Part shown: positions 10,937 to 27,980 of the stretch, in pieces
How the letters are laid out: each line of letters starts with the position of its first letter
Numbering within the stretch: the first letter of the stretch is position 1
Assembly (NCBI GenBank): GCA_018830465.1
Contig: JAHJSI010000048.1
Coordinates: 1 to 33,768 of the forward strand
Reading direction: 5' to 3'
Source of the DNA: Patescibacteria group bacterium
Lineage (GTDB): Bacteria; Patescibacteriota; Patescibacteriia; UBA2169
DNA: 33,768 nucleotides
Program-made: the position numbers and the translations under genes
Notes under the pieces: generated by a model
The model's database searches: none
The model's input: the letters and a program-made list of their open reading frames with translations, nothing else
What the model was told of the DNA's origin: nothing

Positions 10937-10969
10937 AATTTAATTATATATTAGCGCAAATTCTGTGTA

Positions 10970-10999
10970 TTGACAAGTGTGATTAAGATGTGCTAAAAT
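10970..10999 (+). promoter_or_regulatory. strong + strand promoter pointing into the mfd-pth spacer
   Basis: TTGACA (10970-10975), 18-nt spacer ending TGc, TAAAAT (10994-10999). Both flanking genes are on the minus strand, so it can only drive the spacer transcript. Confidence 0.55.
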
Positions 11000-11008
11000 T
11001 TTCTACTA

Positions 11009-11166
11009 TTCTTCTTATTCATCTGCTTGTAGTCCGTCTTGCGCGGGAACCCCTCCTAACCTGCGACGGACATCAAGTCAGGATTAATTGTTTTTACGAT
11101 TAACCCTGCGCTACAAGCAGATGCATGAGAAGAACCATGTACCGCTCACTCCGCTCAAGTACAGGG
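11009..11166 (+). ncRNA. candidate structured small RNA of unknown class (alternative: MITE-like inverted-repeat element)
   Basis: A 24-nt arm (11009-11032) pairs with 11111-11134: 22 Watson-Crick pairs, 1 G-U and 1 mismatch. It encloses two hairpins, 11033-11070 and 11079-11108. A third hairpin at 11135-11166 has a loop carrying CCGCTCA twice. GC-richer than its surroundings. No ORF. Confidence 0.4.
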
Positions 11167-11194
11167 CAAGCTAGTAAAATTGGGATGAAAATAT

Positions 11195-11752
11195 TTAGAT
11201 AGATATAGTTGTTTTCTGTATGCCAGATAGCCATTCATCTATAACCCCTGGAATTTTTTTCAGGGATTTTTTTATAATCTTTTCTCCATCCTTTGTTGGC
11301 GACTTTAGAATGTAGTCCTCAGAAGACACGCGCTGTTTGCCTGCTTTTTTTTCCGCAATGCCAATCTTCAATCGTGCCACGCTCTCTGCCCGTAGGGCTT
11401 TTAGCACTGACTGCATGCCTTGGTGTCCGCCTGATGAGCCATCTGGACGCAGGCGCAGTGTGCCTATCAGCAGATCAATATCATCATAAATAATCAAAAT
11501 ATCTTCTTTCTTGATTTTATAATATCTTGCAATCTTGCCAACGGCATCACCGGATTTATTCATAAAGGTCTGCGGTTTTGCAAGAATTACTTTTGTTTTT
11601 CCAATTTTTTCTTCCACAACAAGAGCATTGAATTTGTCATCTTGTTTAAAGCTCTTTTTGTCCGCAAGCATGTCAACAGCATGAAATCCAGTATTGTGGC
11701 GCTGTTTTTCGTGTTCTTCACCTGGGTTTCCTAATCCAATTATTAGTTTCAT
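11195..11752 (-). CDS. pth: peptidyl-tRNA hydrolase
   Basis: 185-aa ORF. N-terminus MKLIIGLGNPGEEHEKQRHNTGF, plus DDIDLLIGTLRLRPDGSSGGHQG. AAGGAGA lies 7 nt upstream of the ATG. Confidence 0.93.
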   Translation of the reverse strand: MKLIIGLGNPGEEHEKQRHNTGFHAVDMLADKKSFKQDDKFNALVVEEKIGKTKVILAKPQTFMNKSGDAVGKIARYYKIKKEDILIIYDDIDLLIGTLRLRPDGSSGGHQGMQSVLKALRAESVARLKIGIAEKKAGKQRVSSEDYILKSPTKDGEKIIKKSLKKIPGVIDEWLSGIQKTTISI

Positions 11753-14655: not shown

Positions 14656-15273
14656 ATGGAGAACAACAAACAAATACCTGAAATAGAGAAAATGATGCAA
14701 GAAGAGCCAGAAGTCGGAGCCACCAGCGCTTTGGCGTTTATTGGAGAGCTAATAAAAATAACTTTAATCTCTTTGGCGATTATTGTGCCGGTTCGGTATT
14801 TTTTAATAAAGCCTTTTTATGTTAATGGCGCTTCAATGGAGCCCTCGTTTTATAATCATGAATATTTAATTATAGATGAGATTAGCTATAGATTTTCTCC
14901 TCCTCAAAGGGGAGATGTGGTTGTATTTAAGTATCCAAAAGATATCAGCCAGTTTTTTATAAAACGAATTATTGGCCTGCCAGGAGAGCGCGTAGTGATC
15001 TCTAATGGGGAAGTTGTTGTTTATAATTCAAATTATTTAGAAGGAATGTCTCTTGAGGAGGAATATCTATCTGAGCATATTACAACTTTTGGGGATGTTG
15101 ATATAGTTCTTAAGGAAGAAGAATATTTTGTTTTAGGCGATAACAGGGCCGCAAGTTTGGATTCAAGAAGGTTTGGGTCTCTTTCAAAGGATTTTATTAT
15201 AGGAAAAGCATGGATTAGGGGATGGCCTTTGGATAGAATCGGAATTTTGGATCATTATTTTTTTGGATTTTAA
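14656..15273 (+). CDS. lepB: signal peptidase I (S26)
   Basis: 205-aa ORF. TM anchor, catalytic Ser box NGASMEPS, Lys box KRIIGLPGE, and GDNRAASLDSR. Confidence 0.92.
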   Translation: MENNKQIPEIEKMMQEEPEVGATSALAFIGELIKITLISLAIIVPVRYFLIKPFYVNGASMEPSFYNHEYLIIDEISYRFSPPQRGDVVVFKYPKDISQFFIKRIIGLPGERVVISNGEVVVYNSNYLEGMSLEEEYLSEHITTFGDVDIVLKEEEYFVLGDNRAASLDSRRFGSLSKDFIIGKAWIRGWPLDRIGILDHYFFGF

Positions 15274-15283
15274 TTTTAATTAT

Positions 15284-16630
15284 ATGTTTAAAGCAAAGAA
15301 AGTTAAAGATTCTAAGCAAGAACCGAAAAAAATTAAGCGCGCTTCCAAGCATTCAGCCATTCTTAGAGGATTTAAAGATATTCTGCCTGAACACATGTGC
15401 TATTGGCAGCATGTTTATAATCTAGCGCATAAGTTATTTTTTGATTATGGGTATGGACAAATAGAAGTGCCGCTTTTAGAACAAACTTCTCTTTATAAAA
15501 GAACAATAGGAGAACATACAGATATCGTTACAAAAGAAATGTTTACATTTGAAGACAAAGGAGGCGATAGTGTTTCTTTGCGTCCTGAACTCACTCCTGG
15601 AATTGCTCGAGCATATGTTGAGCACGGAATGCTGAATCGACCACAGCCAGTTAAAATGTACAGTATTGGACCTTTGTTCAGATATGACAGGCCCCAAGCA
15701 GGACGGTTTAGGCAGTTTCATCAGTTAGATATGGAAATAATTGGAGATGAAAATCCCATTGCTGACGCTGAAATAATTTTTTTGTCATATTTATTTTGCA
15801 AAAAGCTTGGGATTGATGTTGTAATGCATATAAATAGTTTGGGCATGCCAGAATCAAGAGAAGAGTATATAAAATTGCTAAAAGAGTATTACAAGCCAAA
15901 AAGGCGTCTTTTGTGCGAAGATTGCAAAAAGCGGCTTACAAAAAATACCTTGCGGCTTTTGGACTGCAAAGAGCCGTCATGCCGAGATTTAACTCAAGAA
16001 GCGCCGCAGCTTATTGATTATCTTGACGATGAATCAAAACAGCACTTTGTTCGCGTTCTTGAATATTTAGACGAATCAGAAGTTCCTTATGAATTAAATC
16101 CATTTATTGTTCGAGGACTTGATTATTACAATAGAACTGCGTTTGAGATAATGCCGGTTTTTGAAAAAGCAGAGGAAGATAAAATTCCTCAAGCTATTGG
16201 AGGAGGTGGAAGGTATGACCAGCTTATAGAATTGATTGGAGGCAGGCCTGCTCATGGAGTTGGAATGGCGTTTGGTTTAGAGCGTTTGATTGATGTTGTT
16301 CATAAGTCTAAAAAGGATAGTGTGAAAAGAAAAAGGCCTCAGGTATTTTTAGCGCAGCTTGGAGAAGAGGCGGCTAAAAGAGCTTTTCCTCTTTTTGAGC
16401 GATTAAGAGAATCAGGAATTTGTGTCCGAGCAAATTTTTCAAAATCAGGCCTAAAACAGCAATTGGAAATCGCGGATAAATTAGGCGTTGTGTATTCTGT
16501 CATACTTGGACAAAAAGAGTTTTTAGATGAAACAATTATTATTAGGGATATGGAGAACGGAATTCAAGAAGTTGTTGACCTTGAAAAGATTGTTGATGAA
16601 CTAAAGAAGAGGTTGAAGAATCACGAATAA
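15284..16630 (+). CDS. hisS: histidine--tRNA ligase
   Basis: Frame of ORF 15263-16630, taking the first ATG at 15284. Class II motifs LRPELTPGIARAY, FRYDRPQAGRFRQFHQLDMEIIG, GGGGRYDQL and GVGMAFGLERL, with an anticodon-binding C-domain. Confidence 0.93.
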   Translation: MFKAKKVKDSKQEPKKIKRASKHSAILRGFKDILPEHMCYWQHVYNLAHKLFFDYGYGQIEVPLLEQTSLYKRTIGEHTDIVTKEMFTFEDKGGDSVSLRPELTPGIARAYVEHGMLNRPQPVKMYSIGPLFRYDRPQAGRFRQFHQLDMEIIGDENPIADAEIIFLSYLFCKKLGIDVVMHINSLGMPESREEYIKLLKEYYKPKRRLLCEDCKKRLTKNTLRLLDCKEPSCRDLTQEAPQLIDYLDDESKQHFVRVLEYLDESEVPYELNPFIVRGLDYYNRTAFEIMPVFEKAEEDKIPQAIGGGGRYDQLIELIGGRPAHGVGMAFGLERLIDVVHKSKKDSVKRKRPQVFLAQLGEEAAKRAFPLFERLRESGICVRANFSKSGLKQQLEIADKLGVVYSVILGQKEFLDETIIIRDMENGIQEVVDLEKIVDELKKRLKNHE

Positions 16631-16636
16631 TATCCA

Positions 16637-16665
16637 TTGACAGTATTTGTATATTTTGATACATT
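16637..16665 (+). promoter_or_regulatory. extended -10 promoter for the rpsU operon
   Basis: TTGACA (16637-16642), 17-nt spacer ending TGa, TACATT (16660-16665). Confidence 0.55.
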
Positions 16666-16726
16666 AAACATAATAATTGTTTAGATTTTTATTTTTATTT
16701 AAGACAAGTTTTTAATTGATTAAAAC

Positions 16727-16993
16727 ATGCCAATTACTATAAAGAAGAGAGACAATGAACCAAATGAGCGCCTAATTAGGCGTTTTTCTCGAAGAATCCA
16801 AACTAGTGGATTATTGCTTCGCGCTAAAAAAAGACAGTATTTTGAGCACAGAAAGAATAAGAACCACCTAAAACGCGATGCTCTTCGAAGACTTATGATG
16901 CGAGCTAAAGATGACTATTTGAGGAAAATAGGCATGCTTGAAGAAGACACTTATGGACGAACATTCAAAAGCCGTACATTCAAGAGGAGTTAA
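16727..16993 (+). CDS. rpsU: 30S ribosomal protein S21
   Basis: 88-aa highly basic ORF: MPITIKKRDNEPNERLIRRFSRRIQTSGLL..RKNKNHLKR. Typical rpsU-yqeY adjacency. Confidence 0.88.
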   Translation: MPITIKKRDNEPNERLIRRFSRRIQTSGLLLRAKKRQYFEHRKNKNHLKRDALRRLMMRAKDDYLRKIGMLEEDTYGRTFKSRTFKRS

Positions 16994-17005
16994 TTTTAGC
17001 AATTT

Positions 17006-17461
17006 ATGAAGCTTGTCGAAAAATTAGATAATGATTTTAAGTCAGCGCTTAAGAACAAGGATGCTGAAAAGCTTTCTATATTTCGTCTTGTACGCTCAAG
17101 CATAAAGAATCTTGAAATTTCAAAGCACGGAGAAGCTTCTGATGAAGATGTCATAGAAATTCTGCAGCGCGAGATAAAACAGCACAAAGAATCAATTGAC
17201 GCGAATAAAACTGCAAAACGCAAAGATGAAGTAAATCGTCTTCAAGCTGAAGTTGAATTACTGCAGCCGTATTTGCCAGAGGGAATTTCTTCTGACGAGT
17301 TAAAAGACGTGGTTGAGTGCGCGATTGCTGAAATACAAGCAGTTGATGTGTCTGATATGGGAAAGGTAATGGGTAAAGTAATGCCTCAGGTAAAAGGACG
17401 TACGACTGGAGATGAAGTTAATCAAATGGTTCGCAATCTTCTTCAAAATAACAAAAATTAA
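17006..17461 (+). CDS. GatB/YqeY domain protein
   Basis: 151-aa ORF. KLVEKLDNDFKSALKNKDAEKLSIFRLVRSSIKNLEI and C-terminal DMGKVMGKVMPQVKGRTTGDEVNQMV are typical of the YqeY family. Confidence 0.85.
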   Translation: MKLVEKLDNDFKSALKNKDAEKLSIFRLVRSSIKNLEISKHGEASDEDVIEILQREIKQHKESIDANKTAKRKDEVNRLQAEVELLQPYLPEGISSDELKDVVECAIAEIQAVDVSDMGKVMGKVMPQVKGRTTGDEVNQMVRNLLQNNKN

Positions 17462-17472
17462 TAATAAAAATT

Positions 17473-17706
17473 ATGTCGAAATCAGGAAAATTTGTGTTGG
17501 GTGCTCTATTGGGCGCTGCTGCTGCTGCGCTTTTAACTCCTATTGCGGGAAAGAAGACAAGGCAAAAATTGCAAAAAACCGTTGAAAAAGTTAAGTCTGA
17601 TGAAAGAGTTAATCAGATTATTGAGAAAGGTTCAGAGATTTTCGAGAAAGCAAAAGACGCGGCAGGAGAAAAAATAAACCAACAAACCAAAACTAAAAGA
17701 AAATAA
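17473..17706 (+). CDS. YtxH-like small membrane-anchored protein
   Basis: 77-aa ORF. N-terminal GxxxG-rich helix FVLGALLGAAAAALLTPIAGKKTRQKL followed by a charged helix. Confidence 0.7.
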   Translation: MSKSGKFVLGALLGAAAAALLTPIAGKKTRQKLQKTVEKVKSDERVNQIIEKGSEIFEKAKDAAGEKINQQTKTKRK

Positions 17707-17712
17707 TTTAAC

Positions 17713-20700
17713 ATGCGCAAATTGAGCAAAGTTTTTTTGCAGAATCATCTGAAAGCGCGTTTGATGCTGGCTATTTTGTCTTGTTTTTTTATAGCAGGCT
17801 TTTTTGTTGTGAATGCAGATTCTTTGGTTTTTAATATTGCATACGCGCAAGGCGACAATTATGGCTTGGACAGCGGATTTCAGGAAGTAGCGATTCAATC
17901 AGACAGAGATATAAAGCAGATTATTGCTTTGATTATAAATATATTTCTTGGATTTCTTGGGATTATCGCGGTTATTTTGATTTTGTACGCGGGATACATG
18001 TGGATGACTGCCGGCGGAAATGAAGAAAAGGTTGCTCAAGCTAAATTAATTCTGCGCAATGCTGTGATTGGCTTGGTAATTGTTTTGTCTAGCTGGGCAA
18101 TCGCGTCTTTCGTAATTAGCCGTTTGAGCGATGCTACAGGTGGTGGTGGTGTTGGAACTTGGTGTTCTTCTGATCCTGCGCCTTCGTGCGTTCCAGATAA
18201 TGCTAAATGCGCGCTAGGTTTGTATTGCGATGGTTCATGCGTGTGTCGGTTTGCCGGCGGAGGCGGGGGTCTTGGCGATAATTTTGAAATTAAGAATTTC
18301 CAAACAGCGCATGATGGCCCAACGCCAGATGATGATGTATATCTTTGCAGTAGTGTTGGAACAATTTTTAATGAAATGCTTATTGATCCGACAGTTCAAA
18401 ATGCATGGAGCGATGATACTCTTGAAATTAGGCGAATAGATGACAATGGAACCGCGGTGGATGAAAAAATGTCAGCAAACATGCAAACAGCCAGCAATAT
18501 TATTGATATAAGCCCCACAGAAGCAGGTCTAGACAATAATCAATGGCCTGAGTATAGCAAATTTGAAGTCCATATTCCTAAAACAATAGAAGGCATATCA
18601 GGAAGGACTTTGAGCAATTGCCTGCCGCCAGCGTGCAATGATAGAGTTGCTTATTATTCTTGGGAATTTTTTACAACTGATAAAGATGATGTGCAAGATC
18701 CATATCTTGTTTCAACATATCCTGAAATAACTCCGGAGAATAATAATGTTAATCGGAAAATGACATTTAGTTTGGTATTTTCAGAATCAATAAAAACTGT
18801 CAGTTTTCTTGATGGAGATACTTTTAAAACAGGCCAGACTAATATTATAGTTGAAGAAGCAGCGAGCGGCGCAATAATTCCTTCGGATCAATTTTTTGCG
18901 CGAGTTACTGATGATGGAATTTATTTTAGTTTGAAAGATACTTATGTTGCGTCTTATGATGGTTTGCTTGGACATTTTGATCCATATACGCGTTATAAAA
19001 TTACTGTTCAAGGAATCAAAGATCTTTGCAATAGAGATATGACATTTCAAGGACCATGGTTTTTTACCACAAACGGCGTGACTGCTGGAGTGCAGGGAGT
19101 GTATCCTCCTAATGGATTTAATAATACATGTCCAAGTTCAGAAACATTTATTCAGTTTAGAACTTCAATGTATGATATAACAACTGACTCATGCGCTGTT
19201 GGAAATAGCTTAGTGCAGGGTGGTTTAGGAATTTCTGAACGCACTGCTTTTAATGTCGCATTAACAGGACAAGAAGGCGGAGATTTTCCAGTAGCAGGAT
19301 GGGATCCTGAGAATCCGAATAAATATTGCAGAATGTATGAATTCGCGCCAATTTCTAACTGGCTTGGCATTGGGACTGCTTATAATCCAAAAGTCACTTA
19401 TAAAATTTCGCCTGATGCGAGTCCTGTGACATTTAACCAAGCAGATGATGAATGGGAATTTACTGTTGTGCCAGAGGACCAGTGCGCTTATCCGCCGTAT
19501 ATTACAAGCATAAGCCCTACTAAAGGAGCTTGGGGGCAGTGCGTTACTATTAGAGGCAGGCATTTTGGAACAGGGCCTGTTGCTGATCCGCCTGGGGCAT
19601 ATTCAAAATTAAATCTAGAAGAGCATAGCACAAATCCTGCTTACCGAGAGAATCGAGGAGTTGATGTTACGGATCCAGCAATAATAACCTTTTGGGAATC
19701 TGGCGCGGGAAAAGATGGCATTTATTGGACAAGCGCTTCTAATTGGACAGAAAATTATATTGTTGCTGATGTAGAGGACTTGAAATCAACATCTCAATTG
19801 CACCAGGATAAAGATTTAGATGTTGATGTAAGAATTAGCTCTTATATAGATCTTGATGACAATGGAACTAAAGAAACAGAATTGCCTAGCAATACTATTC
19901 AATTTTTAATCGATGATTTAAATTATATAGGACCTTGTCTTTATAATATTAGGCCTGAGCGCGGTTATTGGGGAGATAAAGTGACGCTTACAGGACGTGA
20001 TCTTGGTTCAGGCGTTGATCCTGATAAAGTAACATTTTATAATGGTTTAGATTTGAGCGCTTCCACTATTCTTGGTGATAGCGGCACATGGACATCCAGC
20101 GAAGTTAGAAATATTATTGTGCCTGAATATGCTTTTCAAGATCCCGCGGGAGACCAAGAGGTTTTTATTACAGTTAATGGAGTAGATTCAAACTGGCTTG
20201 ATTTTGATATTAGCGCGGGCAAAGGCGACACATGCTCTTCTGTGCCAGCTTCTTGCTCTCCAGAACCAAGTATTTGCGGTTCTGGGCTAGAGTGCCGATT
20301 GCCAAGTGAGCCAGAGGAATGCACATGCCAAATTCCAGACAGATTAATAATTCGCAACCCTGCTCCAAGCGCGTGCGCTGATTCATGTACTAACGCGGTA
20401 ATTAGTTTTGAAATAACAAAGAATATTAATACAACAACAGCTGATAATACTACTATCAAACTTTTACAGTGCGCTGATGATAATTGCGTATGGGCTGATG
20501 GAACTGATGTTTCAATTACTCCAACGCCTGCAAGCAAGAGAGTGGAAATAAATCATCAATTAAATATTAATAAATGGTATCGAGTTGCTGTTTTAGGCGG
20601 AGCTAGCGGATTAAAAGCATCTGATGGAAAAGAAATTTATAATACAAATTTTGATGCTGGAGGAACTCAAGCTTATTCATGGAAATTTAGGACAGGGAAT

Positions 20701-23556
20701 TCTGCTTGCGGAGTATATAGAATAGACATGTCTCCTTCTGGAGGAATATTATATGAAAACAAAAGCTATGAATACACAGCTGTATCATACTCAAGACCTA
20801 ATTCATGCTCAAGTACAGGCCAGCAGATCGCGGCAGTATTTAATTGGGCAGGTAAAGAAACGACTTCAGATAATGGAGCAAATGATTGTGAGAATAATTC
20901 CGCGCACCCAAAGCTTGGCTCAATGAGCCCTGCTTCATCAATAGCAATTTCAACTGCTTCTGTTTTAGCTCTTTCTGTTGGCGCAGAGCTTCCTGCATGG
21001 ATTTGCGCTGAATCATCTGGAGTATATGGATCAGCTCCTGTAATATTGAAAGCGAGTTGTAAATCTGCCGCGGATTGCACAATTGGCTTGTGCGTTGCTG
21101 ATTGTGTTGAAGGAATTTGCCAGCCAAAAATTTATCCGGCTCCAGGATTCAGTCCTCAATCTGGAGAGATAGGAACATGGATGACAATTACTGGATGTTA
21201 TTTTGGAAATGATTGGGGACAAGTGAAAACTGGAGGCACAGATGCTTTGCGGCCTGATGAGGCATTATGCGGAAATACTTGGAGCAATACGCAAATTATA
21301 GCAGAAACGCAATCTGATGGCGTGGTAGAAGTTATCCGTATGGGAGATGGACAAAGCGATGATACTAATCCAGCGCAGTTTAATATAACTAGTGATGTAT
21401 GGCCAGCAATTTGCAGAGTGACTCCTGCACAAGAGAGAATTGGAAGAGTTATTGAAATCAAGGGGCAAAATTTCGGCTTATTTTCTGATTTTCAAACTAG
21501 AACTGGTTCAGGAACAGATAATCCATCATATGGCGCGACATACGCAAGCCCGCCGCAATCTGATAAAACCACGGATGAAGTGTCAGAAAGCGCTGGGTGT
21601 GCTTCAGGCGGATGGGGACCTGACCATATTTGCATAAGAGTTGTTCAGGGCGCGCCAATTGGAGAAGGAGTCGTAGAAGTTATTCGTGATAATGTTTCAA
21701 GCGCTGGATATTATTTTAAAGTCATAGACATTAGCACGCGGCCGCAAGATGCGGAAGATTTATATGTTGCATCATATACTCCTGGAGAAGGAAATTTAGC
21801 GTGTCTTAATATGATTATAGAAGTAGGGCTTGTGAACAAGCTTGATGTTGACTCGCTTGATTCAAGCAAATTCTATGTGCAAGAATCAGGCGGTGCGATT
21901 ATTGAAGGAACAATCCAAGCAGAGATTGGAAGAAATTCTAAATTGCGATTTATTCCATCTGCTCCATTAACAACTAGTACAAATTACAAAATTATACTCA
22001 AAGGAGGCACAGGAGGATTAAGAAGTTTATCTGGTGGAATTATTGTTGAGAGTGGTGTTTGTTCACTAACTGGAGGTGATTGTGAAATTGCGTTTAATAC
22101 AGTTGATAATGCTGGAGATGACATGTGTAAAATATCGCATTTAGAAATTGCGCCGAATTCCCCAGTATTTACTTGCGCGCATGATAATTGCGATAAAGAT
22201 ATTGATTTTACAATGACTGGGCGTCAAACAAAATTTTCAGCTGTTCCTATTAATTTTTATAATCAGCCGGCTTTAAGCAATTCAGATATATTGTGGTCAT
22301 CAAGCAATGTTGATATCATTGCTGATTCATATAATTCAGGCCAAAACCCTTTGCCATGGGCTAATTTTAGAGTTATGCCGAAAGACGGCAGTTCAATTAT
22401 TAGAGCATACTCTGAAGATGCGAATGTTTCCGGCTCAACAGAAGCGCGCGTGTTTTTATGCGAGAATCCATGGCCTACTGGTATGGATGTTGACGGAGAG
22501 CCATTCCAAGACAGAATTGGATATGATACATCAGAGAATCCAAAAACAAACTTTTCTACATTTTATTGTCGAGACAAGGGAGAGAGCGGAACAGCAGATG
22601 ATTTGCCAGAAATTTCTAAATCAGCTGAATTTGGCCTCACAACACCAGGAAGAAGCGTTCCTGGGCTTTTGAAGGAAGTATTTTTCACACAGCCATATTC
22701 AAAAACATGTATAGAAAGTGATGAAACAGAAAAAATTGGCATATCTTGTTCATCTAGTACTGATTGTGATCCAGGAGGCGTATGCATTGGCGAGATTGAC
22801 GCGATTGGCATTCGAGTGCTGAAGAATCCAAATAATCTATCTGTAAGCGAATGGTATAATTCTCAGGACTTTGAAAAAGGAAGTCCGAAATCAGTTCAAA
22901 TTGACAAATTTGACGCCTTACAAGACGGGCGCACAATTTATGTGAGCGCGATTAATGACACAGATATTACACCAGGAACTGCGTCTATTTATAATAATAT
23001 TTATCTAATTTCAATAAATGACAAAGCTCATCCAGACACTATTGAAATATATAATCAGTTAGTTGAGAACTGGAGATTCTTGGTAAATATCATAGACAAT
23101 GATGATAAAGAAAAATTACGGCGGGATTTGCAAAGAGTTGATGATGCGTATTATATGGCTAGTGTTATTGAGAATAAGGGATATGCAGTAAAACTTGAGT
23201 CAGGCACTAGGATGAAAGGGCATTCTGTGAGTGTTTGGCCTTCATGGGATCAGGCATTAGTTCAAGATTTTGGCGCGTCTTTTCCAAAAGATCCTGTGAA
23301 TAAGGTATATTGTTCAGATCTATTACAGCCAACCTGCTGGAATGGAAGCAATCTTGTGTGCAATGGAAATTTTCCTGATGGATCTAAATCAACATATTAT
23401 AGGTATAAATATGTTGAAGGAATCCAGAAACAAGCGATTTTGCAATTTAATCTTGAATATAGCACAAGCGCTGACTGGGCTAATGTATTTGTTGGTCCTG
23501 GGTGGACGCCAGGTACAAATGCGTGTGTTAATATGGAATATATAAAAATTTATTAG
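17713..23556 (+). CDS. giant (1947 aa) cell-surface protein: signal/TM, T4SS-pilin (TrbC/VirB2)-like two-TM module, Cys-rich knots, multiple Ig-like and IPT/TIG-like domains
   Basis: Uninterrupted 5.8-kb ORF. Pilin-like module at residues about 61-138 (IINIFLGFLGIIAVILILYAGYMWMTAGGNEEKVAQAKLILRNAVIGLVIVLSSWAIASFV). Repeated motifs of SbsA/Big-type (PYLVSTYPE..FSLVFSESI) and IPT-type (ITSISPTKGAWGQCVTIRGRHFG, IRPERGYWGDKVTLTGRDLG, SPQSGEIGTWMTITGCYFG, VTPAQERIGRVIEIKGQNFG). Cys-rich linkers such as CSSVPASCSPEPSICGSGLEC. Confidence 0.85.
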   Translation: MRKLSKVFLQNHLKARLMLAILSCFFIAGFFVVNADSLVFNIAYAQGDNYGLDSGFQEVAIQSDRDIKQIIALIINIFLGFLGIIAVILILYAGYMWMTAGGNEEKVAQAKLILRNAVIGLVIVLSSWAIASFVISRLSDATGGGGVGTWCSSDPAPSCVPDNAKCALGLYCDGSCVCRFAGGGGGLGDNFEIKNFQTAHDGPTPDDDVYLCSSVGTIFNEMLIDPTVQNAWSDDTLEIRRIDDNGTAVDEKMSANMQTASNIIDISPTEAGLDNNQWPEYSKFEVHIPKTIEGISGRTLSNCLPPACNDRVAYYSWEFFTTDKDDVQDPYLVSTYPEITPENNNVNRKMTFSLVFSESIKTVSFLDGDTFKTGQTNIIVEEAASGAIIPSDQFFARVTDDGIYFSLKDTYVASYDGLLGHFDPYTRYKITVQGIKDLCNRDMTFQGPWFFTTNGVTAGVQGVYPPNGFNNTCPSSETFIQFRTSMYDITTDSCAVGNSLVQGGLGISERTAFNVALTGQEGGDFPVAGWDPENPNKYCRMYEFAPISNWLGIGTAYNPKVTYKISPDASPVTFNQADDEWEFTVVPEDQCAYPPYITSISPTKGAWGQCVTIRGRHFGTGPVADPPGAYSKLNLEEHSTNPAYRENRGVDVTDPAIITFWESGAGKDGIYWTSASNWTENYIVADVEDLKSTSQLHQDKDLDVDVRISSYIDLDDNGTKETELPSNTIQFLIDDLNYIGPCLYNIRPERGYWGDKVTLTGRDLGSGVDPDKVTFYNGLDLSASTILGDSGTWTSSEVRNIIVPEYAFQDPAGDQEVFITVNGVDSNWLDFDISAGKGDTCSSVPASCSPEPSICGSGLECRLPSEPEECTCQIPDRLIIRNPAPSACADSCTNAVISFEITKNINTTTADNTTIKLLQCADDNCVWADGTDVSITPTPASKRVEINHQLNINKWYRVAVLGGASGLKASDGKEIYNTNFDAGGTQAYSWKFRTGNSACGVYRIDMSPSGGILYENKSYEYTAVSYSRPNSCSSTGQQIAAVFNWAGKETTSDNGANDCENNSAHPKLGSMSPASSIAISTASVLALSVGAELPAWICAESSGVYGSAPVILKASCKSAADCTIGLCVADCVEGICQPKIYPAPGFSPQSGEIGTWMTITGCYFGNDWGQVKTGGTDALRPDEALCGNTWSNTQIIAETQSDGVVEVIRMGDGQSDDTNPAQFNITSDVWPAICRVTPAQERIGRVIEIKGQNFGLFSDFQTRTGSGTDNPSYGATYASPPQSDKTTDEVSESAGCASGGWGPDHICIRVVQGAPIGEGVVEVIRDNVSSAGYYFKVIDISTRPQDAEDLYVASYTPGEGNLACLNMIIEVGLVNKLDVDSLDSSKFYVQESGGAIIEGTIQAEIGRNSKLRFIPSAPLTTSTNYKIILKGGTGGLRSLSGGIIVESGVCSLTGGDCEIAFNTVDNAGDDMCKISHLEIAPNSPVFTCAHDNCDKDIDFTMTGRQTKFSAVPINFYNQPALSNSDILWSSSNVDIIADSYNSGQNPLPWANFRVMPKDGSSIIRAYSEDANVSGSTEARVFLCENPWPTGMDVDGEPFQDRIGYDTSENPKTNFSTFYCRDKGESGTADDLPEISKSAEFGLTTPGRSVPGLLKEVFFTQPYSKTCIESDETEKIGISCSSSTDCDPGGVCIGEIDAIGIRVLKNPNNLSVSEWYNSQDFEKGSPKSVQIDKFDALQDGRTIYVSAINDTDITPGTASIYNNIYLISINDKAHPDTIEIYNQLVENWRFLVNIIDNDDKEKLRRDLQRVDDAYYMASVIENKGYAVKLESGTRMKGHSVSVWPSWDQALVQDFGASFPKDPVNKVYCSDLLQPTCWNGSNLVCNGNFPDGSKSTYYRYKYVEGIQKQAILQFNLEYSTSADWANVFVGPGWTPGTNACVNMEYIKIY

Positions 23557-23560
23557 TTTG

Positions 23561-23569
23561 TGGTATAAT
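23561..23569 (+). promoter_or_regulatory. extended -10 element (TGgTATAAT) 6 nt upstream of ATG 23576, possible leaderless start
   Basis: TGGTATAAT at 23561-23569. It is part of a 16-mer (23556-23571) identical to 8068-8083. No -35 seen. Confidence 0.4.
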
Positions 23570-23575
23570 ATATTT

Positions 23576-24331
23576 ATGTTTGAAGACGGGCAACAAAATC
23601 AAAGTCAAGGCAAAGCAGAGGATATTTTTGCAAGTACTGATACAGGCACAACGCCAGTACCAGCTTCACAGCCTCAAGCCGCGCAAACACCTCAACCTCA
23701 AAGCGCTTTAACAAGCGGAAAAATTAAGCCAGCGCTACCGCAAGCAGGAGGAGTTCCATCAGCCCAAGTTTCAGGGGCGCGTGAAACTGGTTTTCCCTTT
23801 AAAAAATTTGTAATTATATTTGGAGTTAGTTTCGGAATTATAGCAATCGCGGGCGCTTTGTTTGTTATTTTAAATAACAAAGCATCAGAGTCTTCTATGG
23901 AGCCAGTACCAACATTAGGCCAGCCGCAAAATGAGCCTGAAACAGATAATACTCCTGATGAAGACAAAATTCCTTCTGCTGATGAGAAGGATGAAGCAGA
24001 AGAACAAGAGCAAGATGAAGGCGGAGTATTAGACAATTTTCAGCAAACACAACAAGACAAGGCATTAAATCCAATCGCCGATGATCTCGCGTCAAAAGAC
24101 ACGGACCAAGACGGCCTAAGCGACGCAAAAGAATTTAACATAGGAACAAATTATAGGCTGGTTGATAGCGATAATGACGGACTCTCTGACTGGGAAGAAG
24201 TTTCTATATTTGGAACTGATCCGCTAGACAAGGACTCTGATAATGATTCATATTTAGATGGTGAAGAAGTGCAAAATGGATACAATCCGCTAGGAGAAGG
24301 GAAATTATTAAATTTTGAAAAAGCTGAATAA
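23576..24331 (+). CDS. single-pass membrane protein with thrombospondin type 3-like Ca-binding repeats
   Basis: Frame of ORF 23558-24331, taking the first ATG at 23576. Low-complexity N-terminus, TM segment FVIIFGVSFGIIAIAGALFVIL, acidic linker, then DTDQDGLSDAKE, DSDNDGLSDWEE and DKDSDNDSYLDGEE repeats. Confidence 0.8.
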   Translation: MFEDGQQNQSQGKAEDIFASTDTGTTPVPASQPQAAQTPQPQSALTSGKIKPALPQAGGVPSAQVSGARETGFPFKKFVIIFGVSFGIIAIAGALFVILNNKASESSMEPVPTLGQPQNEPETDNTPDEDKIPSADEKDEAEEQEQDEGGVLDNFQQTQQDKALNPIADDLASKDTDQDGLSDAKEFNIGTNYRLVDSDNDGLSDWEEVSIFGTDPLDKDSDNDSYLDGEEVQNGYNPLGEGKLLNFEKAE

Positions 24332-24334
24332 ATT

Positions 24335-25768
24335 ATGTTAGGATTTGGAAAAAAGCCTGCCCAAAAAGCAGAAAATAAACAAGATAATAAAAATACGCCA
24401 AACACAGCGCCTGTTCCTGTTATTGATATTTCTGATGACAAGTTTACAGTAATGCCAAAACAGTATCTTCCTCAAAAGGGAAAATTTTCTAAAGCCCCAG
24501 CTTCTATAAGTGCTGGGCCAGGGCAAGGAATTAATAAAAAGTTTTTAATATTAGGCGGCGCGGCATTATTGATATTAATAATAATTTCAGCGATTTTGTA
24601 TTTTGTATTTTTCTTTTCAGGAGACACAAGCGCGCCAGTTGCTATAGCGCCTGAAGAAGCCCAGGTTAAAACAGATAGCCCTGCAAAAGATATAACCACA
24701 GGCGCAGCAGAACCAGAAATAAAAGAGAAAATAATCACTAGCCAAGCATATGATGATTCAAACGTTTTGATTGGGTCAATAAATATTACAATACCCGCGA
24801 CAGTTGTTCAGGAATTTGGCACAGGAATCGGAATAACAGTCCTTGCGCCAGAGGATTTGAGCTTGCCAGAAGACATAACAATATTGGGAGGATTGTATTC
24901 TGTATATCCTTCTGGAGTTTCTTTTGATGAACCGCTTTCCATTGAAATAATTGTATCAGATGTTCCTCAAGGAGTGAGCCAATCAGACGTGTATCCAGCA
25001 TATTTGCGCGGAGTTAAATGGCAAGAGTTTGATGACTACCAAGCGCCAGCTTCTGTTACTGGATTTATTTTAACGCTTGAAAAATTTCCAACTGGACCAA
25101 TTGCCGTAATTTGGAGTCCAGAAGAGGAAGATGATGATACAGGCTCATTTGATTTTATTAAAGCAGTTCCAAGCATTGATACTGATTCAGACGGTCTTAC
25201 TGATACAGAAGAGGGAATGATTGGAACAAGCTATTTGTCAGTTGATTCAGATGAGGACACTTATCAGGATCTTGATGAAATTTTAAATGGATATAATCCT
25301 TTGGTTGGCGGAGGATCTAGACTTGAGGAATCTGGAATATTCGCGACTTATACTAATTTAACATACGGATATCACGCAACTTATCCAGCGCAATGGCTTG
25401 CTGATTCATTAGATCAGACAAATAAGCAAGTATTATTCATATCAGAAACAGAAGAGTTCTTTGAGATTTTGATCGAAGAAAATCCTCTTAATACTCCAAT
25501 AGTTGACTGGTATCGCGCGCAGTCGCCATCTTTGAAAAATGTTGAGCTTGATGTAACTGTTATAGACAAGCGTCCAGCTGTATGGAGTGTTGATGGATTA
25601 ACTTTGTACGCTTCAAAGGATGGACTTATCTATATTCTTACATATAACAGAGGCACTCGAGATGAAATCAGCTGGCCGAATATGTTTGAATATTTCTATA
25701 ATAGCTTTGTGTTTGGAAATACTTTTAATGATGCTGGCACGGCAACTACTACGCCAGAGGGCATATAA
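24335..25768 (+). CDS. single-pass membrane protein with thrombospondin type 3-like repeats and C-terminal globular domain
   Basis: 477-aa ORF. TM segment LILGGAALLILIIISAILYFVFFF. DTDSDGLTDTEE and DSDEDTYQDLDEILNGYNPL repeats parallel the upstream paralogue. Confidence 0.8.
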   Translation: MLGFGKKPAQKAENKQDNKNTPNTAPVPVIDISDDKFTVMPKQYLPQKGKFSKAPASISAGPGQGINKKFLILGGAALLILIIISAILYFVFFFSGDTSAPVAIAPEEAQVKTDSPAKDITTGAAEPEIKEKIITSQAYDDSNVLIGSINITIPATVVQEFGTGIGITVLAPEDLSLPEDITILGGLYSVYPSGVSFDEPLSIEIIVSDVPQGVSQSDVYPAYLRGVKWQEFDDYQAPASVTGFILTLEKFPTGPIAVIWSPEEEDDDTGSFDFIKAVPSIDTDSDGLTDTEEGMIGTSYLSVDSDEDTYQDLDEILNGYNPLVGGGSRLEESGIFATYTNLTYGYHATYPAQWLADSLDQTNKQVLFISETEEFFEILIEENPLNTPIVDWYRAQSPSLKNVELDVTVIDKRPAVWSVDGLTLYASKDGLIYILTYNRGTRDEISWPNMFEYFYNSFVFGNTFNDAGTATTTPEGI

Positions 25769-25775
25769 ATAATTT

Positions 25776-26189
25776 ATGCGCATTGTATTTATCAATCAAG
25801 TATCTGGCACTGCTCGGATTCCTAGGGCAGTGCTTTTGGCTTTAGCCGCGCGAACACAAAAATTGTTCAAGCAGAAAATGCGTGGAAAGTCATTGTGCGC
25901 TGTATTCGCGAGCGCGCGAGAATCAAAAAAATTAAATTCTAAATATCGCGCCAAAAAGCGCGCTACCAATGTTTTATCATTTGAATCAGCAGAAGCTGAT
26001 GAGTTGGGGGATATTATAATTTGTCCGGAGATTGCGCGCAAGGAATCAGGCGCAATGCGCGCGGGATTCAATTGGTGGGTAAGTTATTTATTTGTGCACG
26101 GGCTTTTGCATTTAATTGGTTATGACCATAAAACAAAATCAGAGGAAAACAAAATGGACAAATTAATCCAAAAGATTATATGCGAATAA
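25776..26189 (+). CDS. ybeY: rRNA maturation endoribonuclease YbeY
   Basis: 137-aa ORF. LNSKYRAKKRATNVLSF and metal-binding motif HGLLHLIGYDH. Confidence 0.9.
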   Translation: MRIVFINQVSGTARIPRAVLLALAARTQKLFKQKMRGKSLCAVFASARESKKLNSKYRAKKRATNVLSFESAEADELGDIIICPEIARKESGAMRAGFNWWVSYLFVHGLLHLIGYDHKTKSEENKMDKLIQKIICE

Positions 26190-26542
26190 ATATATTTCGG
26201 AGGATTAAAAGGGCTGTCTTTGGGCTTGCGTCAGTCATCACTTCTGATACTAGCGTTCGCTCAATGAGCGTGATTGGCATTTTGGTAATTGCTGCTGCTT
26301 TCTGGCTTCAAATATCTAGAATTGAATTTATAGTTGTCCTTGTAATTATATTTTCCGTGATTACAATAGAAGGCATTAATACTATTTTAGAAAGGGTGAT
26401 TGATTTAGTGGAGCCCCGCTACAAAGATATAATAGGAGAGATAAAAGACGCTCTTGCCGGGTTTGTTCTGCTTTCAAGCATAGGCGCGGCAATCGTTGGA
26501 GCAATCATCTTTTGGCCGTATTTGGCAGAAAAATTTATATAA
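26180..26542 (+). CDS. dgkA: diacylglycerol/undecaprenol kinase family (DAGK_prokar)
   Basis: 120-aa ORF with three TM segments. EGINTILERVID motif. Overlaps ybeY by 10 nt; ybeY-dgkA is a conserved pair. Confidence 0.8.
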   Translation: MRINIFRRIKRAVFGLASVITSDTSVRSMSVIGILVIAAAFWLQISRIEFIVVLVIIFSVITIEGINTILERVIDLVEPRYKDIIGEIKDALAGFVLLSSIGAAIVGAIIFWPYLAEKFI

Positions 26543-26548
26543 TTTCAT

Positions 26549-26594
26549 TGTACACAAAATTGATACAATAATTTAAAAAGCTGTACACAAAATT
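26549..26594 (+). repeat. two exact copies of TGTACACAAAATT, 33 bp apart, upstream of ftsA
   Basis: Copies at 26549-26561 and 26582-26594. Each begins with the palindrome TGTACA. They lie between the dgkA stop and the ftsA promoter. Confidence 0.6.
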
Positions 26595-26621
26595 TGTTCA
26601 GGCTGTGGAAAAGTAAATCCA

Positions 26622-26650
26622 TTTACATTTTTGATTGTTTTTTGTATACT
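26622..26650 (+). promoter_or_regulatory. candidate ftsA-ftsZ promoter
   Basis: TTTACA (26622-26627), 17-nt spacer, TATACT (26645-26650). This favours the ATG at 26682 as the ftsA start. Confidence 0.45.
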
Positions 26651-26681
26651 TAGAATGAGTCTAAATATAAACAAAAGTATT

Positions 26682-27980
26682 ATGTCGCAAGTAGAACTAA
26701 TAACTGGAATTGACATTGGCTCTAGCAGTACTCGTATTGCTGTTGGCGAGGCATCCCAAGATTCTGACAGGGTAAATATAATAGGATTTTCTGAAGGAGA
26801 GTCTAATGGAGTTTCTAAGGGAGTTATTAGAAGCATTGAAGAAGTTGTTGAATCAGTTATTAGCGTAAAAACAAGAGCTGAAAAAATGACAAGCATGAGA
26901 ATAGATCATGCTATTGTTGGTATTTCGGGAAGCCATATTACAGCTCAAGACAGTAAAGGCGTTATAGCAGTTGCAAGGGCTGATGGAGAAATCAGGGAAG
27001 ATGATGTTGATAGGGTTTTAGAGGCGGCGCAGGCAGTTAGCGTTCCGCCAAATTACGAGATTATACATGTTCTGCCTAAAACTTTTTCAATAGATAATCA
27101 GACAGACATAAAAGACCCAATCGGAATGAATGGAGTTCGGCTGGAAGTTGAGGCCCAGATTATAGAAGGACAGTCCGCGCATATTAAGAATCTTACAAAA
27201 GCAGTATCTTTGTCAGGACTTTCTATAGATGATTTAGTGCTTTCTTCTTTGGCTTCATCAGAAGCCGCTTTAACAGAAAGGCAAAAAGATTTAGGAGTTG
27301 TATTAATAAATATCGGAGCGGCAACAACAAGCATATTAGTATTTGAAGAAGGAGATATACTGCTTGTTAAAGTTCTTCCTATTGGATCAGCTCATATTAC
27401 GAATGACATAGCGATTGGTTTGCGCACGAATATTGATATTGCTGAAAAAATTAAAATTCAATATGGATCCACTTTGTCAAGTATTGGCAAAGGACACTCA
27501 AGTTCAACGGGGCATACGCCCCGGCACATGCCGGGCGGACAAGACGAAGTATCTCTTTCTCAAATTGATGAACAAGAAGAAGGCGGCTTTTCTAGAAAAT
27601 ATTTAGCAGAGATTATTGAGGCAAGAGTTGAAGAAATATTTCATCTTGTGGATAAAGAGCTTAAGTCGGTTGAGAAGTCTGGAAAGCTGCCAGCAGGAGC
27701 AATCTTGACTGGAGGGGGTGCGAAATTGCCAGGAGTAATTGAATCAGCAAAACGGGTATTCCGTTTGCCAGCGTCAATCGGCGCTCCGATTTCTGTTGAT
27801 AGCGCGATTGATAAATTGAATAATCCAGAATATACAACAGCAGTTGGATTAGTGAAGTGGGGATATGCCAACCAAATATCTTCACAAGGATCTTTTGGCT
27901 CGATTGGAATTAGAGGATTTAAAGGCATTCATGCTATTGGCAGCAAATTTAAGTCAGTTATTCATTTTTTTAAATCATAA
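26682..27980 (+). CDS. ftsA: cell division protein FtsA
   Basis: Frame of ORF 26631-27980, with ATG 26682 giving MSQVELITGIDIGSSSTRIAVGE. Actin-fold phosphate motifs LINIGAATTSILVFEEGD and LTGGGAKLPG. Confidence 0.92.
   Translation: MSQVELITGIDIGSSSTRIAVGEASQDSDRVNIIGFSEGESNGVSKGVIRSIEEVVESVISVKTRAEKMTSMRIDHAIVGISGSHITAQDSKGVIAVARADGEIREDDVDRVLEAAQAVSVPPNYEIIHVLPKTFSIDNQTDIKDPIGMNGVRLEVEAQIIEGQSAHIKNLTKAVSLSGLSIDDLVLSSLASSEAALTERQKDLGVVLINIGAATTSILVFEEGDILLVKVLPIGSAHITNDIAIGLRTNIDIAEKIKIQYGSTLSSIGKGHSSSTGHTPRHMPGGQDEVSLSQIDEQEEGGFSRKYLAEIIEARVEEIFHLVDKELKSVEKSGKLPAGAILTGGGAKLPGVIESAKRVFRLPASIGAPISVDSAIDKLNNPEYTTAVGLVKWGYANQISSQGSFGSIGIRGFKGIHAIGSKFKSVIHFFKS
27509..27538. repeat. GC-rich tandem hairpin insert inside ftsA
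   Basis: GGGGC-ATAC-GCCCC (27509-27522) and CCGGC-ACAT-GCCGG (27521-27534) share two bases, followed by GCGG. Encodes TGHTPRHMPGG within an apparently extended linker. Confidence 0.45.

Follow-up and report, generated by a model that had tools for sequence, protein, structure and literature searches.

The DNA analysed here is a 33,768-nucleotide contig of a Patescibacteria group bacterium (JAHJSI010000048.1 of assembly GCA_018830465.1, contig C38 of the source assembly), referred to below as the window. The list of open reading frames (ORFs) and their translations gave an uninterrupted frame of 1,947 codons on its plus strand, which is the longest ORF in a genome of 623,858 bp in 61 contigs, about 95% complete. 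Its product, called the giant protein here, is acidic and rich in cysteine. The genes lepB (14656-15273), hisS, rpsU, yqeY and ytxH lie upstream of it, and two genes termed partner 1 and partner 2 lie downstream, followed by ybeY, dgkA, ftsA and ftsZ. An earlier note had described the gene as a fusion of a pilin of the type IV secretion system (T4SS) to a large surface protein, set in a housekeeping operon. The genes rpsU-yqeY-ytxH and ybeY-dgkA bear out that setting, but the two genes before ybeY had been overlooked. Judged from its sequence, the giant protein can best be called a modular VirB2-type pilin whose distal head is probably derived from type IV pilins. The features of the locus are collected in Table 1.

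Table 1. The giant gene, the parts of its product and the neighbouring genes, with positions in the window (aa, amino acids; TM, transmembrane).
Feature	Positions	Strand	Residues or length	Basis or remarks
rpsU, yqeY, ytxH	16727..17706	+		upstream, same orientation, gaps of at most 12 nt
Giant ORF	17713..23556	+	1,947 aa	211.4 kDa, isoelectric point 4.4, 57 Cys
Long signal peptide	17713..17847	+	1-45	sequence, hydropathy, comparison with C4 pilins
T4SS_pilin (VirB2-like) two-helix hairpin	17905..18114	+	65-134	PF18895, NF045849
Gly-rich linker, Cys module 1, second Gly run	18121..18282	+		16% identity among orthologues
Big_5 Ig-like domain	18691..19071	+	327-453	segment scan
Two IPT/TIG-like domains	19495..20226	+	~595-740, 741-838	segment scan
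Cys module 2	20233..20328	+	841-872	6 Cys; C841 and C861 invariant
Cys module 3	21058..21120	+	1116-1136	C1116, C1122, C1131 and C1136 invariant in orthologues
Two more IPT/TIG-like domains	21148..21747	+	~1146-1345	two stretches, 26.9 bits
Weak Big_5-like Ig domain	21754..22008	+	1348-1432	18.4 bits, below cut-off
Conserved head	22423..23553	+	1571-1947	18-sequence alignment A2
Stem-less type IV pilin/GspG-like sub-domain	23107..23460	+	~1799-1916	profile comparisons
Partner 1	23558..24331	+	257 aa	start may be the ATG at 23576; cytoplasmic tail, TM helix, TSP3
Partner 2	24335..25768	+	477 aa	cytoplasmic tail, TM helix 69-93
ybeY, dgkA	25776..26542	+		downstream, then ftsA, ftsZ

The N-terminus of the giant protein has the layout of a pilin, with a Sec-type signal peptide, two hydrophobic helices and a short, polar, basic loop between them (TAGGNEEKVAQAKLILRN). 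Hydropathy over the whole protein gave only three hydrophobic segments, at residues 13-43 (the signal peptide), 66-102 and 107-139, and none after residue 139, so that all the rest of the chain must lie on one side of the membrane. Cleavage of the signal peptide is predicted after AYA and before Q46, and the pattern A-x-A↓Q is common to the giant protein and the free pilins of the genome. The flank before the first helix is acidic and the loop holds K/R. The Pfam family T4SS_pilin (PF18895) matched the hairpin with 38.9 bits against a cut-off of 26.6, rising to 45.3 bits in the six-frame search of the genome, and NCBIfam NF045849 (Mbov_0395 pilin-like conjugal transfer protein) matched with 43 bits against 40. 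The T4SS-pilin-like module that the earlier note had placed at the N-terminus of a very large ectodomain is thus recognised by two families above their cut-offs. For the giant protein itself, the classical TrbC/VirB2 family (PF04956) scored 14.4 bits, under its cut-off of 27.9; T4SS_pilin, TIG and Big_5 all passed theirs. One free pilin of the genome does pass PF04956, with 39 bits.

The hairpin makes up only 4% of the length of the giant protein and is its best-kept region, with a mean identity among 11 orthologues of 61% against 12-47% elsewhere. Across many orders, the hairpins of 71 giants and 69 shorter pilin-headed proteins have a mean mutual identity of about 53%. Within the genome, six PF18895 modules were found: four belong to free pilins that lie in tandem where contig C4 begins, one is on contig C22 and one in the giant protein. 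The hairpin of the giant protein is 58-65% identical to those of three of the C4 pilins (149-154 aa), linker included, and 37% identical to that of the fifth, pilin-headed ORF on C22. In the loop, AG(F/Y)xWMTAGGNEE is shared by the giant protein and the C4 pilins, as is S(Q/R)LSDATGGGG in the tail, and the linker SRLSDATGGGG of the giant protein recurs in the free pilin C4_1228. Since both the hairpin and the Gly-rich tail match free pilins, the giant protein resembles a free pilin extended by 1,800 residues. On this sequence evidence, the hairpin is a bona fide VirB2-type/PF18895 pilin hairpin and no relic. Contigs C4 (1-1677) and C22 (2-571) both end within pilin genes, and the assembly probably broke inside one T4SS/pilin-array locus owing to the similarity of the paralogues.

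The extension begins with Gly-rich linkers around a first Cys module and continues as an array of Ig-like domains. Big_5 (PF13205) scored 36.9 bits against a cut-off of 23.6 and TIG (PF01833) 45 bits against 20.9, and the array claimed by the earlier note therefore stands on both families; the domain positions were obtained by scanning the protein in segments. Altogether the chain of about 1,800 residues holds six recognised Ig-like domains plus the Cys modules. The recurring Cys-rich strings were found as quoted in that note, the first at residues 151-178 (6 Cys) and the fourth at residues 1679-1691. The name 'Cys-knot' that they had been given finds no support in any Pfam family, the best matches being DX (E=0.077) and Dickkopf_N (E=0.006, in one orthologue). 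Modules 1 and 2 share the pattern C-S-S-x-P-A...C-x-C, and modules 1 and 4 are poorly kept or missing in orthologues. The protein ends in ...ACVNMEYIKIY, with no LPXTG sorting signal and hydrophobic tail.

The C-terminal domain of about 350 residues, previously left as unassigned, proved to be a conserved domain of about 370 residues, here called the head, of which the last 150 or so are probably type IV pilin/GspG-like. A profile of the head matched 113 of 121 class genomes (106 of the 110 high-quality ones), usually in one copy and in ORFs of 1,500-6,000 aa; outside the class there was one strong match in 80 genomes. Its last 155 residues belong to a family of 1,535 representatives at 50% identity in a set of 1.84 billion proteins. 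AlphaFold2 modelling of the domain, as proposed in the earlier note, gave a structure from the 18-sequence alignment (pLDDT 81, pTM 0.78), but no Foldseek match at E<0.001 was found in PDB or BFVD. Closest, short of that threshold, came phage tail proteins, Tsi3 and DcrB, with TM of about 0.12-0.14 by query and up to about 0.3 by target. Profile searches of PDB with the head gave MotY only, at E of about 0.1, and none of the 18 head sequences matched a Pfam family at a useful E-value.

The assignment of the last part of the head, the lobe, comes from profile comparisons. Its alignment has the pattern K-x-K-L-x-R-D-x-K-R-x-x-D ... L-x-x-Y ... G-x-x-P ... L-P-x-D-P-x-N ... Y-x-Y ... L-E-Y, reminiscent of pilins of the GspG type. 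The lobe has a long helix followed by LP-x-DP-x-N ... Y-x-Y ... LEY, with a Cys-containing loop inserted. The head profile weakly matched ORFs of 144-323 aa in 10 of 80 genomes of other classes, at E of 8e-7 to 9e-4 per genome and always at identical profile positions, where 0.08 false matches were expected overall. Of five such loci inspected, four showed the matched ORFs to be pilins with the prepilin motif G↓FTLIELLVV. The fifth (L101, G136:C1:6900-8200) holds at 3-944 of the minus strand a 314-aa ORF with the head pattern twice and no prepilin motif. This protein, with its tandem pilin-head copies (RLSDIKKIRKALDLYY...HDPIE) and plain N-terminal hydrophobic segment, would be a further instance of pilin heads re-used outside pilins. 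When the head was compared with the 2,750 six-frame ORFs of its own genome, the sole match below E=1 other than itself was the major type IV pilin (C33:12-497, E=0.0075).

Comparison by hhalign of the lobe (A6) with 28 CPR (Candidate Phyla Radiation) pilins (A7) gave a probability of 97.3% and E=2e-11 over 89 columns, whereas reversed or unrelated alignments gave at most 0.7%. About half of the A7 pilins are annotated with PF07963 and PF08334 and the rest with PF07963 only, and only the seed of this set came from the head search. With the family of the genome's own pilin (A5), chosen independently, the match covered the helix only (33 columns, 89.7-93.5%), and the full-length match thus depends on the GspG-type family A7. 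The correspondence with GspG and type IV pilin heads (PF08334, PF07963) takes in the helix, the turn at LP-x-DP and the strands with Y-x-Y ... LE. The lobe differs from them in its inserted Cys loop, in its position at the far end of a chain of 1,800 residues and in its lack of leader and stem: no prepilin leader G↓F-T-L-I-E with a hydrophobic N-terminal helix occurs anywhere in the giant protein, and the lobe begins with an amphipathic helix. Set against a pilin origin are the confinement of the likeness to profile comparisons and the lack of a pilin match by Foldseek, by PDB profiles or by single-sequence Pfam searches, PF08334 included. On balance the lobe is probably homologous to type IV pilin/GspG heads. 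As it has neither leader nor hydrophobic stem, the usual entry into a type IV filament would be impossible for it.

In Falkowbacteria-type relatives the head core opens a separate ORF of 900-1,200 aa directly downstream of the giant. The split falls at an identical point in L037, L083, L052, L059, L032 and the Falkowbacteria-type loci (e.g. L049 16555-19641): the giant stops about 90 residues into the head, and the core of the head opens the next ORF (850-1,200 aa), which in L037 overlaps the giant ORF by a few bases. A genuine division of the gene and a frameshift that recurs are both possible explanations. In a few genomes of the class (G401, G372, G311 and G238) in-frame stops (TGA, TAG or TAA) were seen within the head match, and these copies of the otherwise nearly universal gene may be pseudogenes or contain sequencing errors.

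A protein of such composition might be an artefact, an assembly chimera or mis-called ORF in which a small pilin gene has been run together with the gene of an unrelated surface protein, and the breaks of this assembly within other pilin genes (C4, C22) do indicate that the pilin paralogues confuse the assembler. Relatives of the giant protein were looked for among 5.8 billion proteins. This search gave 84 proteins of 1,083-3,407 aa, nearly all with PF18895 and Big_5 and optionally with TIG, LamG, VWA or Cys-repeat domains, from Parcubacteria-group, Kuenen-, Komeili-, Uhr-, Jackson- and Peregrinibacteria. The giant protein aligns, from residue 1 to its last, with eleven orthologues (1,865-2,095 aa) whose assemblies are independent and come from different sources (NCBI, ENA, JGI, Logan). 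Three of these orthologues (P0004, P0006, P0026; 24-36% identity; NCBI, ENA and JGI contigs) were inspected in their surroundings and have an identical gene order: lytR, der and pth on the minus strand, then lepB - hisS - rpsU - yqeY - (ytxH) - giant - TSP3 protein - a protein of about 460 aa - ybeY - dgkA - ftsA - ftsZ. The composition along the giant gene is even. Given collinear orthologues from independent assemblies, a chimera is effectively ruled out, and we regard an artefact as extremely improbable. The giant is an ancient, class-wide and real gene.

When one genome per species was scanned, at least 533 related stretches came up, of which 80 loci were retained and examined together with the three orthologue loci. 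Pilin-headed ORFs of 500 aa or more number over 130 in these 83 loci, which also speaks against an artefact. Either hisS or rpsU lies upstream in 66 loci, and the giant with both partner genes downstream is present in 51. Two tandem pilin-headed genes, one of 450-1,100 aa and then one of 1,500-4,600 aa, occur in 57 of the loci, and a single one, as here, in 22. In the closest relatives, either ytxH or a small unannotated ORF stands in the position of the short paralogue, or the position is empty. The pilin-headed ORF on C22 was considered as the missing short paralogue and rejected, only its hairpin matching the short paralogues of other genomes. The loci belong to Magasanik-, Uhr-, Falkow-, Kerfeld-, Jackson-, Kuenen-, Buchanan- and Veblenbacteria, which we take to be the GTDB class ABY1. 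Many third-party-annotation entries of metagenome-assembled genomes with this Patescibacteria-specific locus (L015, L017, L019 and others) bear the title 'uncultured Gammaproteobacteria bacterium', apparently a systematic mislabel in those submissions.

The giant is thus no isolated oddity: it is part of a conserved three-gene module with its TSP3 partners, and is itself a class-wide, usually single-copy core gene. The intergenic gaps from rpsU to dgkA are 0-12 nt, a consensus scan gave a good promoter-like site before rpsU (16637-16665), and the same scan of the plus strand from 14843 to 26891 gave no convincing terminator, bar a weak site (20731-20744) inside the giant gene. The genes from rpsU to dgkA are likely to be co-transcribed. 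Both partners are predicted to have a cytoplasmic tail of low complexity, a single TM helix and, in their ectodomain, TSP3 repeats of the DxDxDG type. In partner 1 the tail, which contains EDIFASTD, is followed by the helix, an acidic linker and the Ca-binding TSP3 repeats. Partner 2 has a beta domain (132-260), TSP3-like repeats (280-330) and an alpha/beta domain (336-456), and both folded domains were seen in its AlphaFold2 model (35 sequences, pLDDT 79). Foldseek matched this model to ZU5 domains (E=2e-5) and to the PsbP family (E=6e-5, target TM 0.54), either match being assignable to either domain. The motif [ED][DE]IF occurs in partners of 30 of 53 loci as against 18 of 881 background ORFs. 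A second motif, (I/V)HTMPxKF, occurs in partners of 12 loci and has a weaker counterpart here, FTVMPKQY. These cytoplasmic motifs, near the N-termini, may be docking peptides for a cytoplasmic partner.

The constancy of this module could mean that the giant protein, the shorter pilin-headed paralogue and the TSP3 partners form an organelle of their own in which the T4SS is uninvolved, the hairpins bundling together and the partners forming a base that links them to the cytoplasm. The module gene order is kept across orders, relatives hold two to four TSP3 partners with conserved cytoplasmic motifs, and the PsbP-like and ZU5-like folds of partner 2 are interaction folds, all of which would suit such a fibre. 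Yet the module contains no ATPase or other assembly factor, no partner resembles known pilus bases, and the hairpin is the same as in the free pilins linked to the T4SS. We consider a separate fibre improbable.

A T4SS is present in the genome. On C22 a VirB4-like ATPase (P-loop_TraG, 95 bits) is followed by two small genes and then by the pilin-headed ORF that runs off the contig end. A VirB4 homologue was found in 59 of 61 high-quality genomes of the class, with 70-84% identity, and PF18895 in 294 of 301 genomes of the phylum; among the best 150 matches listed across the phylum, the ORFs bearing PF18895 were mostly small pilins. A candidate T4SS coupling protein found through AAA_10 was rejected, the match being FtsK on contig C10. 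The T4SS locus of a genome of the same family has the order PrgI - x - VirB4 - x - x - 473-aa pilin-headed protein - x - DsbA-like oxidoreductase. There, too, the T4SS-linked pilin is extended, and close to its gene lies that of a disulfide-forming enzyme. An array of small pilins in another class was found to include a pilin-headed CARDB protein of 1,239 aa. The thioredoxin-fold oxidoreductase of the same-family locus (L105, G333:C4:35000-54500, 10854-11495), two genes past the pilin-headed protein, could form the disulfides of exported Cys-rich proteins.

These observations can be combined as follows. The giant protein would be exported by Sec and cleaved by signal peptidase. The hairpin would then sit in the membrane as in VirB2 pilins, with both ends outside and the basic loop inside. 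In the F-pilus structure of Costa et al. from 2016, both termini of VirB2-family pilins reportedly face outward. Taken together, this topology, the acidic N-terminal flank and the basic loop argue that the ectodomain is extracellular. The ectodomain would form a stalk tens of nm long, stabilised by disulfides and Ca. Since the hairpin appears to be under the same constraints as those of the free pilins, handling like them in T4SS assembly is favoured. The giant protein would enter the pilin pool of the core T4SS as a rare subunit, probably the first and hence distal, so that the secretion filament or channel would covalently carry its own contact fibre. The head would touch the host surface or another filament. 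That the giant protein is handled like the free pilins and joins T4SS-dependent assembly as a rare, probably distal subunit is, by analogy with them, the reading that we tentatively prefer to its rivals.

Several points weigh against such an assembly. The giant gene is neither in a pilin array nor next to virB4, whose homologue is on C22; it stands in a housekeeping/cell-division cluster outside the T4SS locus, and where both are on one contig the distance to virB4 is tens of kb or more. The likeness of the hairpins within one genome could in part be due to gene conversion. An extension of 1,800 residues is impossible on every subunit of a VirB2-type helix, and only a minor-subunit role can therefore be meant. 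No Patescibacterium is known in which a pilus of these pilins has been observed, so that joining a pilus is an analogy, and we infer the surface exposure, adhesion and host contact of the giant protein.

Alternatively, the hairpin could be only a pilin-derived two-helix membrane anchor and the giant protein a permanent, membrane-rooted component of the envelope, independent of the T4SS, for example an S-layer-like or fibrillar coat or a membrane-wall spacer working with the Ca-repeat partners. The gene lies in a constitutive cluster, it is a class-wide and usually single-copy core gene, and its constant neighbours encode proteins that span the membrane once, have Ca-binding repeats and share conserved motifs on the cytoplasmic side. 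Archaeal S-layer glycoproteins resemble such a membrane-rooted array of Ig domains. A passive anchor should, however, conserve hydrophobicity, whereas here the hairpin including its polar loop is best conserved and 58-65% identical to free pilins. In addition the ectodomain varies by lineage (1,500-6,000 aa; LamG, VWA, PKD, Cys repeats), which fits a contact protein better than a lattice. An anchor with no part in the T4SS appears to us less likely than T4SS assembly, but is its main rival. A host-attachment or envelope-spanning role, as the earlier note had suggested, is plausible. Host contact is in keeping with the adhesin-type domains, which vary among the relatives, and with the lifestyle of the phylum: most Patescibacteria live on other cells, and they may account for much of bacterial diversity.

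Taking the assembly as a rare T4SS subunit further, one may imagine a T4SS filament whose distal subunit is a stalk of about 200 kDa, with its head docked on type IV pili, of the cell itself or of the host, or on a receptor, so that T4SS and pilus would be coupled, while the TSP3 partners tie the base to the co-transcribed division machinery. This extended scheme is speculative and seems to us improbable as a whole. If the stalk did stand in a T4SS filament with its head on type IV pili, the T4SS and type IV pilus machineries would be physically coupled at the host interface, in a surface organelle built of parts from two unrelated pilus systems.

Small VirB2-like pilins and their arrays are already published for Patescibacteria (PMC10633639, PMC12102498, PMC12857230), and in the sole transposon sequencing study, on Southlakia epibionticum with its pilin array, T4SS genes and pilins were essential (PMC10633639). 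The giant protein shares the hairpin and signal-peptide pattern of these PF18895 pilins. It differs from them in that they are free-standing proteins of 100-200 aa, in arrays and often near virB4, whereas it has 1,947 aa and is solitary in a housekeeping cluster. Fusions of pilins to large ectodomains are not mentioned in PMC12102498, PMC10633639, PMC12857230 or PMC11665869, and hairpins so fused, the conserved locus and the head domain were found unmentioned in the literature searched. The survey of 3,035 genomes by Quinonero-Coronel et al. (2025) found no adhesin such as PrgB for the patescibacterial T4SS (PMC12102498). PrgB-type adhesins of Gram-positive conjugative T4SS could be functional equivalents of the giant protein, as large contact proteins for a monoderm T4SS (PMC12102498). 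No sequence relationship to them was found, and the giant protein, without LPXTG, would be anchored by its pilin hairpin and not by the wall. The Pam pili of Mycosynbacter amalyticus, assembled by donor-strand exchange from pilins of 39-55 kDa and found mainly in Saccharimonadia and Microgenomatia (PMC13278184), are likewise CPR-specific surface filaments whose Ig-like domains have disulfides. They were considered as relatives and rejected as unrelated, Pam pilins having no VirB2-like hairpin (PMC13278184).

A pilin assembly module with a large C-terminal functional passenger is also found in PilB and PilC of Streptococcus sanguinis. These belong to the unrelated type IV class, with a class III signal peptide and an N-terminal hydrophobic helix; the giant protein has instead a Sec-type signal peptide and a VirB2-type hairpin, and its passenger is ten times larger. 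It would be the first VirB2-type pilin to carry cargo. With a pilin hairpin covalently joined to a stalk of 1,800 residues and a conserved head, it is a concrete candidate for the missing contact device of the patescibacterial T4SS, and its loop motif in the hairpin, its head and both of its partners offer direct handles for experiments. The stem-less type IV pilin head would be a pilus part re-used as a building block outside the pilus. The conserved module may also serve as an annotation marker, as the relatives at present have generic names ('Ig-like domain-containing protein', 'IPT/TIG domain-containing protein', 'hypothetical protein') or, in most cases, none.

Finally, lepB stays four genes upstream of the pilin-headed genes in most, indeed nearly all, of the 83 loci. 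Long VirB2-type signal peptides are substrates of LepB. The linkage may be functional or mere conserved gene order, and any connection with cleavage of the giant protein may be a coincidence.

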